Positions 54,773 through 63,198 of a stretch of DNA of 64,000 nt are shown here, one piece after another. The notes under the pieces were generated by a model. That model was given only the letters and a program-made list of their open reading frames with translations. It was not told the origin of the DNA and searched no databases. Position 1 is the stretch's first letter. The number at the start of each line of letters is the position of its first letter. Source of the DNA: an uncultured delta proteobacterium. GTDB lineage: Bacteria; Myxococcota_A; Polyangia; Haliangiales; Haliangiaceae. The translations under genes and the position numbers were made by a program. The stretch spans positions 1,536,001 through 1,600,000 of the forward strand of contig CAWKDB010000010.1 of the NCBI GenBank assembly GCA_963848295.1, written 5' to 3'.

Positions 54773-55276
54773 ATGTCCGTTCGGTTTGCCGCGATCGTCA
54801 CCTCCATCGGCCTCGGTCTCGCGGGCTGCAAGGGCATGGGAGGCTTCGCGTCGGGGCTCGGCCATGTCGCGTCGGGGCTCGGCCATGTCGCGTCGGGGCT
54901 CGGCCACGTCGCGGGCAGTGTCGCGGTCGCGGCGGCTCGAGCGGCGCCGGCCATCGCGCGCGCTACGCCGCTCGTCGCTCGCGCCGCAGGCCAGGCGATC
55001 CCGGTCGCCCTGCGAGTCACCGAGACGGTCGCCGAGGCGGTCGCGTTGGCGAGCGACACCTCGGGCGACGATGATCAGCCAGCGTCCGAGGCGGCGGCGT
55101 CGGAGTCGGACTCGGCGCCGTCGTCGGGCGAGAACGACGTTCCCGGGGCGCCCGGCGCCTACGACCCGTGCGTATCGTGCCCGGACGCGATGCCGTGCGA
55201 AGCGTGCATGGGCTGGAACAACAACGCCTGCCGCGACACGCCGGGCGGCGCGCTGCTGCGCTGCGAATCGCAGTGA
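54773..55276 (+). CDS. Lipoprotein with (ASGLGHV)3 repeat, acidic linker and six-Cys C-terminal domain
   Basis: Lipobox LAG-C; tail CVSC..CEAC..C..C. Confidence 0.75.
   Translation: MSVRFAAIVTSIGLGLAGCKGMGGFASGLGHVASGLGHVASGLGHVAGSVAVAAARAAPAIARATPLVARAAGQAIPVALRVTETVAEAVALASDTSGDDDQPASEAAASESDSAPSSGENDVPGAPGAYDPCVSCPDAMPCEACMGWNNNACRDTPGGALLRCESQ
54846..54913 (+). repeat. 21-bp tandem repeat, about 3.2 copies, in frame
   Basis: tcgcgtcggggctcggccatg x2, then tcgcgtcggggctcggccacg and a partial copy. Confidence 0.95.
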
Positions 55277-55587: not shown

Positions 55588-58500
55588 ATGGCGGATACTC
55601 GAGGCGTGAGCATCGAGCGGGACGACACCATCCAGCCGACGACCAAGCTCGGGGTTGGCGAAGTGCCGACCGCTGACTTGCGTCCGGCACGGATGCGCAT
55701 CGCCACGATCGAGATCCCCGGCTACACCGTCACCGACCTGCTCGGCGAGGGCGGGATGGGCACGGTCTACGCCGCGGAACAGGACAACCCGCACCGGCGG
55801 GTCGCGATCAAGGTGCTCGAAGGCCGGTCGCAGAGCGCATTCATTCGGTTTCAGAACGAAGCCGAGATCATGGCGCGGCTCGATCATCCCGGCATCGCGC
55901 GCGTGCTCGAAGCGGGCGAAGCCGATGGCCGGCCGTTCCTCGTGATGGAGCACGTCGATGGCACGACGCTCGATCGCTACGTCAAGGAGCTCGGGTTGCG
56001 CGCGCGGCTCGAGCTGTTCGTCGCGTTATGCGAGGCGGTCCAACACGCGCACATCAAGGGCGTGATCCATCGCGATCTCAAGCCGGCGAACGTGATGGTG
56101 CGCAGCGACGGTCGCGTCGTCGTGCTCGACTTCGGCGTCGCGCGGCTCGCGGTCGACGATGGCTCGATGACGCCGACCGCGACGCGCGCGGGCGAGCTGA
56201 TCGGCACGCCGATCTACATGAGCCCCGAGCAAGCGCGGCTGCGCCCCGACGAGGTCGACGCGCGCACCGATGTCTACACGCTCGGCGTCATGCTCTACGA
56301 GCTGTGCAGCAACGAGCTGCCGTACGAAACGCGCGACGCGCCGCTGCCGATCCTGACGTGCATGATCTGCGAGGATCCGGCGACGCCGCTCGCGAAGCGC
56401 GATCCGGCGCTGCGCGGCGATCTCGACGCGATCACCGGCAAGGCGCTCGCGAAGGAACCGGGCGAGCGCTACCAATCGATCGCGGCGCTCGGCGACGACG
56501 TGCGCCGTCACCTCGACAAGTTGCCGGTCTCGGTGCGCTCGCCGGGAGCGATCGAGCGCACGGCGCGGTTCGTGCGCCGCCGGCCGTATCTCGCAAGCGC
56601 GATCGGGGTCGCGGTCGCCGCGGCTGCCGCGTTCGCGATCGTCGTGACGATCCTGTGGCGCGAAGCCGCGGTCGCGCGCATCGTCGCCGAAGGTGCGACC
56701 GCGCAGAGCGAGGTCCGGCGCGCCGCACTCGAGACCCGGACGAATCAGCTCACGCTCCGCACCGCCCGCGCCGCGCTCGCCCGCGATCCGACCGAAGCGC
56801 TCGCGTATCTCGCGACGTTGACCTCGCGCGGCGTCGACGCCGGCACCGCGTGGGCGATCGCCGACGAAGCGCTCGCTCGCGGCGTCGCGAAGGACGTGCT
56901 GCGCGGCCACTCCGACGAAGTCCACCGCATGGCCGAGCTGCCGGGCGGCTTCGTCAGCGCCGGCTACGACGGCAAGGTCATCGTGTGGGATCCGGCGCCG
57001 CGCACCGTGTTCACCGCGAAGAAGGGCCGCGCCCACGTCGCGGTGCCTTCACCCGACGGCTCCGAGATCGCGGTCGGCGGCGACTTCGGCGGGCTCGACG
57101 TCGTCAGCCGCGACGGCAAGCACCTGGCTTCGCTCCCCGGCTACGCCGGCGACGTCCAGCACGTCGCTTGGTCCGCCGACGGCGCGTGGCTCGCCGCCGG
57201 CGACGACCACGGCCGGCTCGCGGTATGGCCCAAGGGTCGCGCACCGTGCGTCGAGCTCATTCCGGGTGGCTCGACGATCGGCACGGTCGCGTTCGCGCCG
57301 ACCGGCGAGCTCGCATCCGGCGATCACGCGGGCGTCGTCCGCTGGTATGACCTCGCGACGCACGCGAGTGCATCGGCGGCGACCGGCACCGATATCGCGA
57401 CGGTGTGGACCGATGGCAAGCGTGTGATCTCGGCCGACGCGGGTGGCACGGTGCGCACGTTCCGCGTCGATCGAACCGCACCGCCATCCGGCGGCGCTGC
57501 CGGTCCCGGGCAAGCCGGCACCGTCGAAGGCACTCCACCGGCGCTCGTCGCCGATCACGTCAAGGCGACCGGCGTGAACGTCAAGCGCGCGGTGTTCGGC
57601 CCGGCCGGCGCCTGGCTCGTGCTCGGCGGCGTCGGCGGCACGGTGACGCGGGTCGTGCTCGACGCGGGGCAGGCCGGCGCCGTCGACGGCGATACGCTCG
57701 AACCGATCGGCCTGCATCACTCGCAGGTTCGCAGCATCGCGATCTCGGAAGATGGCCGGTGGATCGCGCACGGCGGCGACGACGGCACGCTCGCGCTCTA
57801 CGATCGAATCAGCCGGCGCACGCGCGAGCTCGCGGGGCACACCGGCCGGATCCGCCACCTGCTATTCGTCGACGGCGGCAAGCAACTGCTGTCGTCGGAT
57901 AGCGACGGGGTCGTGCGCCGCTGGGACCTGACCGAGATGCCGCCGACCGAGCTCTCGGCGGGCGGCGAGGCGATCGATCGGCTCGCGATCTCGCCCGACG
58001 GCGCGACCGTCGCGACGGTCGATGCGGCGTACGGCGTCTCGACCTGGAATACCGCGACCGGCGCGCACGTCGCGCTCGGCACCGCCGACAGCCGCGTCAC
58101 CGCACTCGCGTTCGCCGGCGATCGGGTCGTGACCGGCACGACCGAAGGCATCGTCACGCTGTGGGGGGACCCGCCGCACAAGGAGTCCGTTCACGCGATC
58201 GTCAAGGCGATCGCGACGAGCAGCGATCGGATCGCGGTCGCGACCTCGGCGGGCCCGATCGCGATGTTCTCGGTCGCGGGCGGTGCGCTGCCCTCGCTCG
58301 CGGGCAACCCAGCCGGCACCGAGGCGATCGCGTTCGCGCCGAGCGGCGACCTGCTGGCCTCGGGCGGACAAGATCGTTCGGTCCGCGTGTGGCGGCGCAC
58401 GACCGACGCGTGGACTCAGGTCGCCGCGCTCGACGGTCCGAAGGGCGACACCACGTTCGTCGCGTTCTCGCCGGGCGGCGACTTGCTCGCGAGCGCGGGC

Positions 58501-58974
58501 AACGACGGCGTGGTCTACGCGTGGCGCGTCACGAACGGCGCCGTAGATCCCGGTTCGCGAATGATCGTCGCTCGTCACACCGGCGCGGTCACCGCGCTCG
58601 CGGTCACCGCCGGCTGGATCGCCTCGGCGGGCCGCGACGTCGTCATCACGCGCGCGAAGGTGTCGGCCGGCTCGGTCGGCGCTTCCGAAACCGCGACGAT
58701 CCCCGCCGCCGCAACTCGGCTCGTGCTCGAAGACGATGGCGACTTGCGCGCGGTGACCCGCGCCGGCGGCGTGATCCGGTGGTCGCTCGGCTCGCCCGCC
58801 GTCGTCGAGAGCGAGCACGGCGCGCGCGACGCGGTGCGGCTCGCCGATCACGGTCGTTGGCTCGAGGCGTTCGACGACGGCGCGCTCGTCGCCGGCTCGC
58901 TGCACGCGCGCTCGCTCGCCGAGCTCCGAGCCACGCTCGCGCGCGCCACGACGTACACGCTCACGGCGCGCTAG
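55588..58974 (+). CDS. Ser/Thr protein kinase with a TM helix and WD40 repeats
   Basis: [34 protein letters not shown]; repeated GH...WD and LASGGQDRSVRVW. The start may be GTG at 55606. Confidence 0.93.
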   Translation: MADTRGVSIERDDTIQPTTKLGVGEVPTADLRPARMRIATIEIPGYTVTDLLGEGGMGTVYAAEQDNPHRRVAIKVLEGRSQSAFIRFQNEAEIMARLDHPGIARVLEAGEADGRPFLVMEHVDGTTLDRYVKELGLRARLELFVALCEAVQHAHIKGVIHRDLKPANVMVRSDGRVVVLDFGVARLAVDDGSMTPTATRAGELIGTPIYMSPEQARLRPDEVDARTDVYTLGVMLYELCSNELPYETRDAPLPILTCMICEDPATPLAKRDPALRGDLDAITGKALAKEPGERYQSIAALGDDVRRHLDKLPVSVRSPGAIERTARFVRRRPYLASAIGVAVAAAAAFAIVVTILWREAAVARIVAEGATAQSEVRRAALETRTNQLTLRTARAALARDPTEALAYLATLTSRGVDAGTAWAIADEALARGVAKDVLRGHSDEVHRMAELPGGFVSAGYDGKVIVWDPAPRTVFTAKKGRAHVAVPSPDGSEIAVGGDFGGLDVVSRDGKHLASLPGYAGDVQHVAWSADGAWLAAGDDHGRLAVWPKGRAPCVELIPGGSTIGTVAFAPTGELASGDHAGVVRWYDLATHASASAATGTDIATVWTDGKRVISADAGGTVRTFRVDRTAPPSGGAAGPGQAGTVEGTPPALVADHVKATGVNVKRAVFGPAGAWLVLGGVGGTVTRVVLDAGQAGAVDGDTLEPIGLHHSQVRSIAISEDGRWIAHGGDDGTLALYDRISRRTRELAGHTGRIRHLLFVDGGKQLLSSDSDGVVRRWDLTEMPPTELSAGGEAIDRLAISPDGATVATVDAAYGVSTWNTATGAHVALGTADSRVTALAFAGDRVVTGTTEGIVTLWGDPPHKESVHAIVKAIATSSDRIAVATSAGPIAMFSVAGGALPSLAGNPAGTEAIAFAPSGDLLASGGQDRSVRVWRRTTDAWTQVAALDGPKGDTTFVAFSPGGDLLASAGNDGVVYAWRVTNGAVDPGSRMIVARHTGAVTALAVTAGWIASAGRDVVITRAKVSAGSVGASETATIPAAATRLVLEDDGDLRAVTRAGGVIRWSLGSPAVVESEHGARDAVRLADHGRWLEAFDDGALVAGSLHARSLAELRATLARATTYTLTAR

Positions 58975-60879: not shown

Positions 60880-61482
60880 ATGTGGCGAACCGGCAGCGCC
60901 TGGACCGACCGCGATGCACTCGCACGACAGTGGCGCGGCGCCCAGCCGTTTCCGCACCTGGTGTTCGATGACGTGTTGACCGAGCCAGCGCTCGCCGAGC
61001 TGTTCGCGATCCTCGACGAAGAATCGGTAGATCCGTACGAAGGCGACATCTTGTCGTTCGAGGCATCGCCGCCCGAGCCCCGCACCGCCGAGCTCCGCGC
61101 CGTGCGCGAGGCCTTCGCGGCCGCCTACGCCGCACCGCTCGCGGCGATCACCCACAAAGTGCTCGCGCGCGCCGACATGCGCGCGTTCGCGTATCGCATC
61201 GGCCACTACCTCCTGCCGCACACCGATCACCGCGACGGGCTGCACCGCGCGCTCGCGTACGCGTACTACCTGCCGTCGCCCGAGCCGCCGACCGGTGGCG
61301 AGCTCGAGCTGTTTCGCTGCTCGATCGCCGATGGCGAGCTCACGGAGACGACGTCGGCGCTGCTGATCGAACCGCGCGGCAATCGCCTGGTCGTGTTCGA
61401 GGTCAACGACGTGTCGTTGCACCAGGTCCGCGAGGTCACCGCCGGGCTGCGGATGTCGCTCGCCGGATGGTTCTATCCGTGA
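60880..61482 (+). CDS. 2OG-Fe(II) oxygenase resembling the OGFOD1/Tpa1 catalytic (prolyl hydroxylase) domain
   Basis: AQPFPHLVFDD, YLLPHTD (HxD), RALAYAYYL, GGELELF, NRLVVFEVNDVSLHQVREV, RMSLAGWF. Confidence 0.88.
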   Translation: MWRTGSAWTDRDALARQWRGAQPFPHLVFDDVLTEPALAELFAILDEESVDPYEGDILSFEASPPEPRTAELRAVREAFAAAYAAPLAAITHKVLARADMRAFAYRIGHYLLPHTDHRDGLHRALAYAYYLPSPEPPTGGELELFRCSIADGELTETTSALLIEPRGNRLVVFEVNDVSLHQVREVTAGLRMSLAGWFYP

Positions 61483-61997
61483 CGCCGGCCGAGCAGCTCG
61501 CGAACGAAGGCGTCGCTCTCGTCGCCGACGCCGTCTCGGTCGCGCTCGCCGCCGCGGTTCGCGCTCGCCTCGCCTATCGCCGGTTCGCGTTGCTCGATCG
61601 CGGTAGCTACGAATTCGCCGAGCGCGTCGTCGAGCCCGAGCTGTTCGCGACGCTCGCCGCGATCGCCTCGCAAGCGACCGGGCGTACGCTCGCCGCGAGC
61701 GACGCGCGCGCCCTGCGTTTGCGCGCGGGCGACTATGTCCTCGCGCATCACGATCGGTTCTACGACGACCGGCCGATCGAGGCCGTGCTCGATCTGTCGC
61801 CGGCCGCCGTGCCACAGGCCGAGCTGCACTATCGCAGGCGCGGCCAGGTGTTCTTCCGGTTCCCGAGCGCGCCGCGGGCGCTCGCGCTCGTCGATCGCAC
61901 ACCGGTCGTGACCTGCAACCACGTCTACGTCAGCCGATCGGTCCCGACCGCGGACGTCATCCGACTCGTCGTCACGCTGCGGGCTACGACGTCGTAG
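61479..61997 (+). CDS. Degenerate 2OG-oxygenase-fold protein resembling the Ofd1/OGFOD1 C-terminal domain
   Basis: GTGA overlap; RLRAGDYVLAHHD, IEAVLDLS, ALALVDRTPVVTCNHVYVSRS. Confidence 0.72.
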   Translation: MTPAEQLANEGVALVADAVSVALAAAVRARLAYRRFALLDRGSYEFAERVVEPELFATLAAIASQATGRTLAASDARALRLRAGDYVLAHHDRFYDDRPIEAVLDLSPAAVPQAELHYRRRGQVFFRFPSAPRALALVDRTPVVTCNHVYVSRSVPTADVIRLVVTLRATTS

Positions 61998-63198
61998 GCG
62001 CGTCGGGCTTCGCCGCCGCCGAGATCGGCAGCATGATCGTGACCGTCGTCCCGATCCCGACTTCGCTCTCGATGTGCAATCGCCCGCCGGCGGTACCGAC
62101 GAGACGCTGACACTGCGCGATCCCCAAGCCGGTGCCCTCGGTGCGGGTCGTGAAGAACGGCGTGCCGACCTTCGACAGCACCTCGGGCTTCATCCCGACG
62201 CCATCGTCCTTGATCCGGAACTCGAGCATGTTGTCGTCGTTGGCGTGTACCGCGATCGAGACGTGACCGTTGGTCTTGCCGCGCGCGGCGACCGCCTGCG
62301 CACCATTCGACAGGACGTTGATCAGGACCTGCGTCAGCTCGGTCGCGGGCATCGTGACGCGCGGCAGCTCGGTCGGCCCGATGTAATCCACCGACGCGCC
62401 TGCGCGAATCGAGATCTGCTGACACACCGCCATCGCGTGCCGCAAGATCGGTAGCGGATCGGTCATCGGCGTCGACTTCGGATCGCGCGGCCGGCTGAAC
62501 TCGCGCAGGTTCGAGATCATGTGGTTGAGGTGCTCGGCCGACGCCTTGAGGTCGGCCATGAGCGGATCGATGTCGCCGAGCGCGGTGATCAGCGCGTCGC
62601 GCTCCGCCGATTTCGGCTCGCCCGCGAGCAGCGCGCGATGGATCATCGGCGCGTTCTGCGTGAGCTCGTCGAGCAGCTCGAGGTTGACGAGCAGTGACAC
62701 GACCGGCTGCTTGAGGTCGTGGACGAGCATGCCGGAGATCGTGCCGAGCGTGACCAGGCGCTCGGTGTCGAGCAGCCGGCGTTGCAACGCCTCCGAATCG
62801 CGGCTGAACGTCCACGCGCCGATCGCCCAGCGCAGGACCTGGATCGACCTCGGTCCGCTCCCACGGCTTGACGATGTAGCGCGCGACCAGACCCTCGTTG
62901 ATCGCCCGCAGGATCGGCTCGACATCGGCGTACGCGGTGATCACCATCCGGATCGTCCGCGGGTACTTCTCTTTGACGATCGCGGAGCAGCTCCTCGCCA
63001 GACATCGTCGGCATCCTCATGTCGCTGACGATCACGGCGACGTCGCCCTCTTCGAGCGCGCGGAACGCCTCTTCAGGCGTCTCGCAGGTCAAGACCGTAA
63101 ACATGCTGCCGATCGACAGCTCGAACACCGTGCGGTTCGGCTTCTTCGTCGTCGACGTAAATGACGAGCGGGCTCGGGGGCGGATCGGCGGCGGGCAT
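61984..63198 (-). CDS. REC-HisKA-HATPase hybrid kinase broken by three apparent +1 frameshifts (about 63145, 62984, 62846)
   Basis: The pieces join as MPAADPPPSPLVIYVDDE / KPNRTVFE...VSDMRMPTMSGEELL / AIVKEKYPRTIRMVITAY...YIVKPWERTE / IQVLRWAI...LVHDLKQP...INVLSNG...DDGVGM...GTGLGI. Confidence 0.85.

Follow-up and report, generated by a model that had tools for sequence, protein, structure and literature searches.

Human OGFOD1 is a trans-3-prolyl hydroxylase that acts on Pro62 of the ribosomal protein uS12/RPS23 (structures 4nhx/4nhy), and its yeast counterparts, Tpa1 of S. cerevisiae and Ofd1 of S. pombe, are Rps23 prolyl 3,4-dihydroxylases (3mgu, 3kt1/4/7, 4nhk, 6e0t). The OGFOD1 subfamily has been called eukaryote-only, and prokaryotic prolyl hydroxylases single-domain (PMC4396695). 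Here we describe two overlapping genes, gene 1 and gene 2, in a 64,000-nucleotide stretch of myxobacterial DNA (the window), which encode the catalytic half of such an enzyme and its C-terminal domain (CTD) as separate proteins.

An initial annotation, made from the letters of the window, had read the two genes as the halves of OGFOD1/Tpa1/Ofd1 in the eukaryotic order. Profiles, folds and trees bear this out. None of three outcomes set beforehand as refutations occurred: a gene 2 that matches Ofd1_CTDD neither by profile nor by structure, a gene 1 that groups with generic bacterial enzymes, or a pair not conserved in other genomes. In conclusion, the pair is a genuine and conserved bacterial member of the OGFOD1 lineage, made up of two genes. 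Given the archaeal cases discussed below, the presence of the family in prokaryotes is not in itself surprising; new here are the bacterial branch, the alteration of its substrate groove, an independent fusion and a cultured carrier strain. We tentatively propose that the pair is a heterodimeric Fe(II)/2-oxoglutarate (2OG) prolyl 3-hydroxylase, whose most probable target would be the PNSA-loop proline, Pro45, of ribosomal protein S12.

Two overlapping genes form one conserved locus

Gene 1 (60880..61482, + strand) codes for 200 amino acids (aa). Pfam, a PDB sequence match, Foldseek and a tree identified it as a catalytic 2OG-Fe(II) oxygenase like the N-terminal domain of OGFOD1/Tpa1. Gene 2 (61479..61997, + strand) codes for 172 aa from a GTG start, or for 176 aa from an in-frame ATG 12 bases before it. 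Pfam (below cut-off), profile-profile comparison, Foldseek and a tree assigned it to a non-catalytic double-stranded beta-helix (DSBH) of the Ofd1_CTDD type. The G+C content at third codon positions (GC3) was coding-type in both genes (0.88 and 0.87). The pair is single-copy in the window's genome, which is 85% complete. Kofleriaceae are the nearest named relatives, and the host is accordingly taken to be a myxobacterium of this family.

The stop of gene 1 and the start of gene 2 overlap in GTGA (61479..61482, + strand), which likely couples their translation. When GTDB genomes were scanned, 141 stretches matched; 85 of these were confirmed and 80 were kept as loci. Gene 2 lay directly 3' of gene 1 in 79 of the 80 loci, and in the 80th the contig ends within gene 1. 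The in-frame A/GTGA overlap was found in 78 of the 79 informative loci, all 79 of which keep the pair. When gene 2 matches came from other families, gene 1 was upstream in 7/7. At the same time, a contig of run X1 spanned 61401-61689 with zero letter differences and zero gaps (X1 may be the source sample).

These results bear on the idea that one gene was broken by an assembly error, or that a programmed -1 frameshift produces a single OGFOD1-like chain. The two frames do abut, and two natural fusions (P0389 and P0388, described below) exist. An assembly error at the overlap is excluded because gene 2 adjoins gene 1, and does so through the same overlap, in nearly all loci and because X1 agrees; the GTGA start seen by the initial annotation is real and not a missing base. 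A slippery heptamer was not found at the junction. Moreover, a direct join of the frames would contain no linker, whereas the linker of OGFOD1 has 31 residues (PMC4396695) and that of the natural fusion is proline-rich. We consider a single broken or frameshifted gene extremely improbable.

Gene 1 has the site of an OGFOD1-type prolyl hydroxylase

The HxD...H/R site quoted in the initial annotation is present in gene 1 as H114-x-D116, H181 and R191-x-S193, together with W197. In a 72-row alignment of the gene 1 family (A2), L111, H114, D116, Y130, H181, R191, S193 and W197 were invariant (72/72 rows). L111, which corresponds to OGFOD1 Leu152 at the prolyl-3-hydroxylase (P3H) position, and the metal ligands H114-x-D116 are encoded at 61210..61227, the distal metal ligand H181 at 61420..61422 and the 2OG-binding R191-x-S193 at 61450..61458, all on the + strand.

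Gene 1 passed the Pfam cut-offs of both 2OG-FeII_Oxy_3 and 2OG-FeII_Oxy_4. Its sole significant sequence match in the PDB was human OGFOD1 (E 2.3e-9; 25% identity, template modelling (TM) score about 0.8). When the A2 profile was searched against the PDB, OGFOD1 was matched at E 9e-19 and Tpa1 at 2e-6, and next came a prolyl 4-hydroxylase (P4H) entry at 1e-3, which we take to be of the Dictyostelium type. The AlphaFold model of gene 1 (predicted local distance difference test, pLDDT, 90.7) gave consistent results. Foldseek ranks 1-8 were all Tpa1 or OGFOD1 (TM 0.78-0.84, best match Tpa1 3mgu), and the Pseudomonas P4H reached 0.63-0.65. The P3H/P4H position held Leu in 72/72 rows of the gene 1 family and Tyr in 4/4 rows resembling the Pseudomonas enzyme PPHD; P4H enzymes carry Tyr where OGFOD1 has Leu152 (PMC4396695). 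Many relatives bear the JGI name 'Rps23 Pro-64 3,4-dihydroxylase Tpa1-like'. This is presumably a broad COG label, and we gave it no weight.

By profile, by fold and by the separate clade of PPHD-like enzymes described below, gene 1 is therefore nearer to OGFOD1/Tpa1 than to the generic P4Hc/SM-20 enzymes. By homology, one would expect gene 1 to be active as an Fe(II)/2OG dioxygenase that acts on a peptidyl proline, and likely on its C3.

Gene 2 corresponds to the C-terminal domain of Ofd1

Against Pfam Ofd1_CTDD (PF10637, curated cut-off 27 bits), gene 2 scored 15.1 bits (E 0.016). Among 73 aligned close relatives (A1), this family was detected at E<=1 in 39 (best 4.3e-5) and a catalytic 2OG family in none. 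Among 1.84 billion representatives, 201 matches were obtained, and the best 150 of them revealed a broader family of about 185 aa (alignment A3). The model of gene 2 (pLDDT 97.8) matched the CTD of S. pombe Ofd1 first (6e0t, E 2.4e-9, TM 0.76), followed at ranks 2-10 by Tpa1, OGFOD1 and one Burkholderia oxygenase. Sequence and hidden Markov model searches of gene 2 against the PDB gave nothing significant; antibody chance matches appeared, and the Ofd1 CTD only at E 1.4.

Profile-profile comparison pointed in the same direction as the fold. The broad gene 2 profile scored 143 with archaeal second genes (see below) and 105 with eukaryotic CTDs (98.6% against eukaryotic CTDs), and its scores with catalytic domains were 61 (myxobacterial), 58 (archaeal) and 34 (eukaryotic). 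The narrow profile scored highest with archaeal CTDs (74), and reached 34 with archaeal and 26 with eukaryotic catalytic domains. Its two remaining scores are weighed with the trees.

The HHD motif of gene 2 is H90-H91-D92, and C146 aligns with the distal H181 of gene 1, as the initial annotation had stated. H90 was His in 44/73 and Arg in 29/73 close relatives. Position 146 was Cys in 52/73, otherwise Ser, Arg, Ala or Thr, and never His (0/73); in the broad family it was mostly Arg (87/126). The positions of the 2OG-binding Tyr and Arg are Asp and Val in gene 2. The full metal triad occurred in 0/126 rows of the broad alignment, and the first His was also kept in archaeal (8/13) and eukaryotic (3/10) CTDs. 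Together with the long derived branch of the bacterial CTDs, these results speak against the suggestion that gene 2 is a less decayed, pre-fusion form. Two features were exclusive to CTDs, namely Tyr at the position of gene 1 E185 and Asp at that of Y130; both occur in bacterial and most archaeal CTDs.

In the CTDs of type-I pairs, to which the window's pair belongs, two other histidines are conserved: H91 (61749-61751) in 70/73 and H148 (61920-61922) in 69/73. They lie outside the canonical triad positions, are not conserved in the broad family and may form a secondary ligand site. Gene 2 is a predicted metal-free second DSBH homologous to Ofd1_CTDD, and it should serve as a structural and docking subunit.

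The pair is patchily distributed, and its halves were fused in some bacteria

Carriers of the 80 loci are titled as Kofleriaceae, Labilithrix, Polyangiaceae, Haliangiales, Myxococcales/Myxococcota and unspecific Deltaproteobacteria or Proteobacteria bins, and all of these genomes are of Myxococcota type. The cultured strain Labilithrix luteola DSM 27648 carries the pair (locus L038). Matches to A2 were found in 76/146 genomes of the order (73 strong) and in 74/136 of the host's own family; two genomes marked as unpublished (G285 and G286) count in both tallies, and no further claim depends on them. Matches to A3 were found in 44/401 genomes of the class, confined to four families among those searched, and in 4/251 genomes of a phylum sample. 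Misses are not equal to absences, because few candidates were scored per genome and the genomes are incomplete. Relatives of gene 1 were found neither in confirmed viral contigs (one spurious motif match) nor in plasmids. No promoter or terminator consensus was found at the pair loci. Neighbour clustering at the 80 loci, in which the GC3 filter dropped some open reading frames (ORFs), revealed no gene beside the pair that is shared across lineages.

In genome G188, a single ORF of 370 aa (P0389, L282:3829-4938) contains both halves in one chain. It is named as coming from a Myxococcales bin and sits behind a gene with ten immunoglobulin-like repeats. P0388 is a second bacterial fusion. A search for longer relatives spanned 472-2000 aa, a range outside which the fusions (370-409 aa) fall. 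P0389 and P0388 nest inside bacterial clades, and the bacterial fusion is therefore independent of the eukaryotic one. A further candidate, P0387, looks like a frameshifted assembly and was rejected.

Two side observations concern related genes. Four loci (L216, L217, L218 and L220) hold single-domain myxobacterial oxygenases with the P3H-type Leu, which score 55-65 bits on OGFOD1-type profiles and are placed inside or beside the OGFOD1 group in trees; no CTD gene was detected alongside them. In one genus (L270-L273), a third pair variant stands last in an operon with a lysine-2,3-aminomutase-like radical SAM gene, DUF454 and an OPT oligopeptide transporter.

Trees place both halves in the OGFOD1 lineage

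For comparison, archaeal and eukaryotic sequences were collected by a motif scan of metagenomes (29 of 64 parts), which gave at least 120 loci. Among these were 39 split pairs of the archaeal type whose second gene is complete, and 16 long ORFs, assigned to the eukaryote-type class from their fused architecture. Both Pfam families were passed by 7/7 tested eukaryote-type ORFs, and Ofd1_CTDD by 9/11 archaeal-type second genes. Ten first genes were looked up; three bore archaeal names (Poseidoniia twice, Pacearchaeota once), six had no name and one was not found. Rows for the trees were subsampled by hand from the loci, and partial ORFs and P0387 were excluded.

In the catalytic-domain tree (71 rows, mixture model), a clade (98/100) was formed by the 19 rows from myxobacteria, among them the fusions. 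Fourteen single-domain PPHD/SM-20-like enzymes of the same phylum formed their own clade (100/99), which excluded gene 1. The group that joins the myxobacterial, archaeal and eukaryotic sequences with three single-domain enzymes had 87/76, and the backbone among the three was not resolved. A clade of myxobacteria and eukaryotes was marginally rejected for the catalytic domain (approximately unbiased test, p-AU 0.045). Myxobacterial catalytic domains grouped with Poseidoniia at 99/94 under LG+G4, and this grouping was gone under the mixture model with more rows.

In the tree of both domains (73 rows, LG+G4), all 44 CTDs lay on one side of a branch with 100/98, and the 21 bacterial CTDs sat on a stem of length 1.5. 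Myxobacterial and eukaryotic CTDs joined at only 77/71. The donor of the bacterial pair is thus not fixed by the trees.

Several points would fit a gene 2 that is an independent, decayed duplicate of gene 1 and resembles a CTD by convergence, and they count against the assignment made above. No A1 member attains the Pfam cut-off of Ofd1_CTDD (best relatives E 4.3e-5 and 25 bits), the narrow gene 2 profile favours myxobacterial gene 1 (52) over eukaryotic CTDs (44), and the branch is long. When the myxobacterial halves were forced together, the test was not significant on the poorer quick tree (0.27). The same duplication was rejected against the careful tree (p-AU 0.038), on which we rely together with the CTD clade, the CTD-only Tyr and Asp and the top fold match to the Ofd1 CTD. 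An independent duplicate is accordingly a very remote prospect. Most likely, a single domain duplication preceded the divergence of the archaeal, bacterial and eukaryotic forms.

The initial annotation had further suggested that the pair is relevant to the origin of the eukaryotic enzyme. This weakened in our analysis, since archaeal split pairs are far closer to OGFOD1 and the clade of myxobacteria and eukaryotes was the one marginally rejected. The bacterial CTD branch is derived, and it is not shown as the source of the eukaryotic enzyme.

Ribosomal S12 is the leading candidate substrate

The strict pairing, the coupled translation and the natural fusion lead us to expect a 1:1 complex, and the two proteins likely form a heterodimer. 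Translational coupling at the GTGA overlap would supply them in equal amounts. In gene 1, H114, D116 and H181 would bind Fe(II), while Y130, R191 and S193 would bind 2OG; O2 would be consumed in the hydroxylation of a peptidyl proline at C3. Gene 2, unable to form the same site, would lie against gene 1 in the manner of the OGFOD1 CTD, and in OGFOD1 the contact between the domains is made by their minor beta-sheets. It would stabilise gene 1 and dock the substrate, probably before S12 joins the 30S subunit. We regard a protein proline as the probable site of hydroxylation, and S12 as the possible carrier of that proline.

The decoding loop of S12 adjoins the classic accuracy and streptomycin mutations. 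The loop sequence TTPKKPNSALRK was invariant in 28/28 S12 proteins, so the PNSA proline on which the initial annotation had built is indeed present in these proteins. Human OGFOD1 hydroxylates a 20-mer uS12 peptide that lacks the N-terminal docking region (PMC4396695). Relatives of gene 1 are acidic (median net charge -11), as are eukaryotic N-terminal domains (NTDs, -10), and would therefore suit a basic substrate, which is a weak hint.

A series of observations weighs against S12. S12 was the same whether a genome had the pair (14 genomes) or lacked it (14 genomes), so the presence of the loop does not discriminate, because genomes without the pair have it too. Ofd1 binds Rps23 residues 1-23 through a basic-x-Pro-x-Gly-Leu docking sequence (PMC5690285), and this sequence was found in 0/28 S12 proteins. 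One of 102 loci lay beside rho or prfA, and 0/102 beside the S12 gene. The net-charge signal is unspecific, with a median of 0 for archaeal NTDs and of -10 for one unrelated group. In about 16 genomes, a single S12 stands against two paralogous pairs, and the distribution is patchy even within the genus (58/89 genomes with any A2 match).

The substrate groove points both ways. The groove residues of OGFOD1 are K91, L95, Y96, Q100, D140, L152, D156, L159, R162 and W236 (PMC4396695). Six of the ten (L95, Y96, D140, L152, R162 and W236) are kept or conservatively changed in the gene 1 family. The other four are replaced in the myxobacterial family: K91 by Y (68/72), Q100 by A (72/72), D156 by S or T (71/72) and L159 by Q or R (72/72). 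These four are common to eukaryotic (6/6) and archaeal (7-9/9) catalytic domains. On the sequences, the altered groove can be read as an adaptation to a bacterial loop with a different N-terminal side, or as a switch of substrate.

The single locus beside rho, L286:2337-8945 of genome G476, has the pair and two unrelated genes inserted between rho and rpmE-prfA.

The second reading of the groove leads to a heterodimeric prolyl 3-hydroxylase of the same kind that was re-targeted after its transfer into bacteria, for example to a proline-rich protein. Type-II pairs, a paralogous group, stand directly behind a conserved proline-rich gene of 291 aa (no Pfam or NCBIfam family), which also weighs against S12. 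This gene lies upstream in eight of the loci L071-L080 (L071-L072, L074-L077 and L079-L080) and in L277, L278, L283 and L284; of the exceptions, L073 is a type-I locus and L078 is cut by a contig end. The type-II cluster (e.g. L075:3586-9565) also includes a B12 radical SAM enzyme and methyltransferases, together with one PAAR gene and one gp5/VgrG-C-like gene, and is possibly a modification cluster for an injection-spike protein. In the window's own genome (G000:C10:4630455-4632090), PAAR, proline-rich (31% identity) and gp5-C-like genes stand together, without the pair or the radical SAM gene.

Re-targeting to such a PAAR/spike-cluster protein would account for the four groove residues changed family-wide, the docking motif missing from S12, the very long CTD stem, the patchy presence and the paralogue pairs. 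The type-II operon and the diverged proline-rich copy in the window's genome also fit it. On the other side, the linkage is limited to close kin of one genus and may for that reason reflect shared ancestry. None of the type-I loci and none of the seven loci of other families shows it, and no neighbour is common across lineages. We judge re-targeting to be a conceivable explanation, somewhat on the doubtful side.

The B12 radical SAM enzyme and methyltransferases of the type-II operon, and the accessory distribution, would likewise suit a pair that turned into an oxygenase for the tailoring of a small metabolite or a peptide natural product. The match to a model of oxygenases for ribosomally synthesised and post-translationally modified peptides was weak (17 bits vs a cut-off of 150). 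Type-I pairs, including the window's, stand isolated, and their neighbours change; the peptidyl-proline groove has kept its Arg, Asp, Leu and Trp, and a retained non-catalytic docking domain fits a protein substrate. A tailoring role is thus unlikely.

The strict retention of the CTD, with the fission-yeast precedent (PMC5690285), could also mean that the pair is mainly an O2 sensor whose hydroxylase activity controls the binding of a regulator to the CTD, as in Ofd1 with Sre1 and Nro1. No conserved regulator was found alongside the pair, and the adjoining kinase gene of the window runs convergently and is not shared. OGFOD1 stays catalytically efficient under severe hypoxia, according to a review (PMC4682802), and the W3-binding Ser234, tied to O2 sensitivity in PMC4396695, is Ala in 66/72 rows. 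An O2 sensor is quite unlikely on these grounds.

S12 hydroxylation by the heterodimer is the reading we continue with. A possible history, which we put forward with reserve, is that myxobacteria (Kofleriaceae and Polyangiaceae) took the two-gene module from archaea and re-shaped its groove for TPKKPNSA in place of EAKQPNSA. The pair would then be the first bacterial S12 prolyl 3-hydroxylase, and one lineage would have fused the halves separately. In the searchable literature we found no description of a bacterial OGFOD1 or S12 prolyl hydroxylase, though tables of myxobacterial eukaryote-like genes could exist; the searchable files among the supplements of PMC12872458 and PMC13734099 yielded no bacterial OGFOD1-type entry.

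Neighbouring genes in the window

A convergent histidine kinase gene (61984-63160, - strand) overlaps gene 2 with its 3' end by 14 bases. Its receiver domain is apparently split off by frame changes, possibly assembly errors, and its ORFs at 61984-62925, 61925-62947 and 62643-63128 lie in different frames. Further upstream, the ORF list shows a Ser/Thr kinase of 1128 aa that contains a long region of WD40-like repeats, typical of myxobacteria (55588-58974, + strand), and a small ORF resembling a lipoprotein, in which a 7-residue repeat occurs three times and the C-terminus is rich in Cys (54773-55276, + strand).

Discussion

The fusion of the two halves occurred at least twice. As separate small proteins, they let the role of the inactive CTD be examined by omission, and in the cultured carrier Labilithrix luteola DSM 27648 the modification of S12 is readable directly. 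If S12 is the target, bacteria, archaea and eukaryotes would all possess an oxygen-dependent mark of the decoding centre. Should S12 prove unmodified, the pair would be an OGFOD1 enzyme with a new substrate.

Like human OGFOD1, the pair consists of a catalytic DSBH followed by a metal-free one, and gene 1 shares with it the HxD...H ligands, the Tyr and RxS for 2OG, the Leu at the Leu152 P3H position, D140, R162 and W236. OGFOD1 is one chain, whereas the bacterial pair is two genes without linker or acidic insert, has K91, Q100, D156 and L159 changed and a compact, highly diverged CTD (172 aa), and is known here from its genes. Tpa1 and Ofd1 are the top fold matches of gene 1 (3mgu) and gene 2 (6e0t), respectively. 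The Nro1/Ett1 or Sre1 context of these enzymes was not seen at the bacterial pair, the dimerisation inserts of Tpa1 are absent, and bacterial S12 lacks the docking sequence of Ofd1.

Pseudomonas PPHD, the prolyl 4-hydroxylase of EF-Tu (4j25, 4iw3), and the SM-20/PHD-like enzymes share the prolyl-hydroxylase superfamily and fold with gene 1, and PPHD is a bacterial enzyme acting on a translation protein. Unlike gene 1, they are single-domain, carry Tyr at the P4H position, form a separate clade and give lower fold scores. E. coli YcfD/RoxA, the arginyl hydroxylase of uL16, provides a precedent for a bacterial ribosomal-protein oxygenase (PMC4396695, PMC4682802). It differs in being JmjC-related and in acting on arginine and on the large subunit, and it was absent from the sequence matches and listed fold matches of gene 1.

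The split pairs of archaea (Poseidoniia, Pacearchaeota and other DPANN-type contigs) have the same layout as the bacterial pair, with two overlapping genes, catalytic then CTD, in the same domain clades. An Asgard model matching OGFOD1 appears in one supplementary row of PMC12962969, with no mention in the main text. By profile score, the archaeal halves (404 and 255) resemble their eukaryotic counterparts far more than the bacterial halves do (204 and 105). Unlike the bacterial genes, they mostly pass the Ofd1_CTDD cut-off (9/11 tested) and retain the uS12 groove residues, and their overlaps vary in length, whereas the bacterial overlap is fixed at 4 bases.

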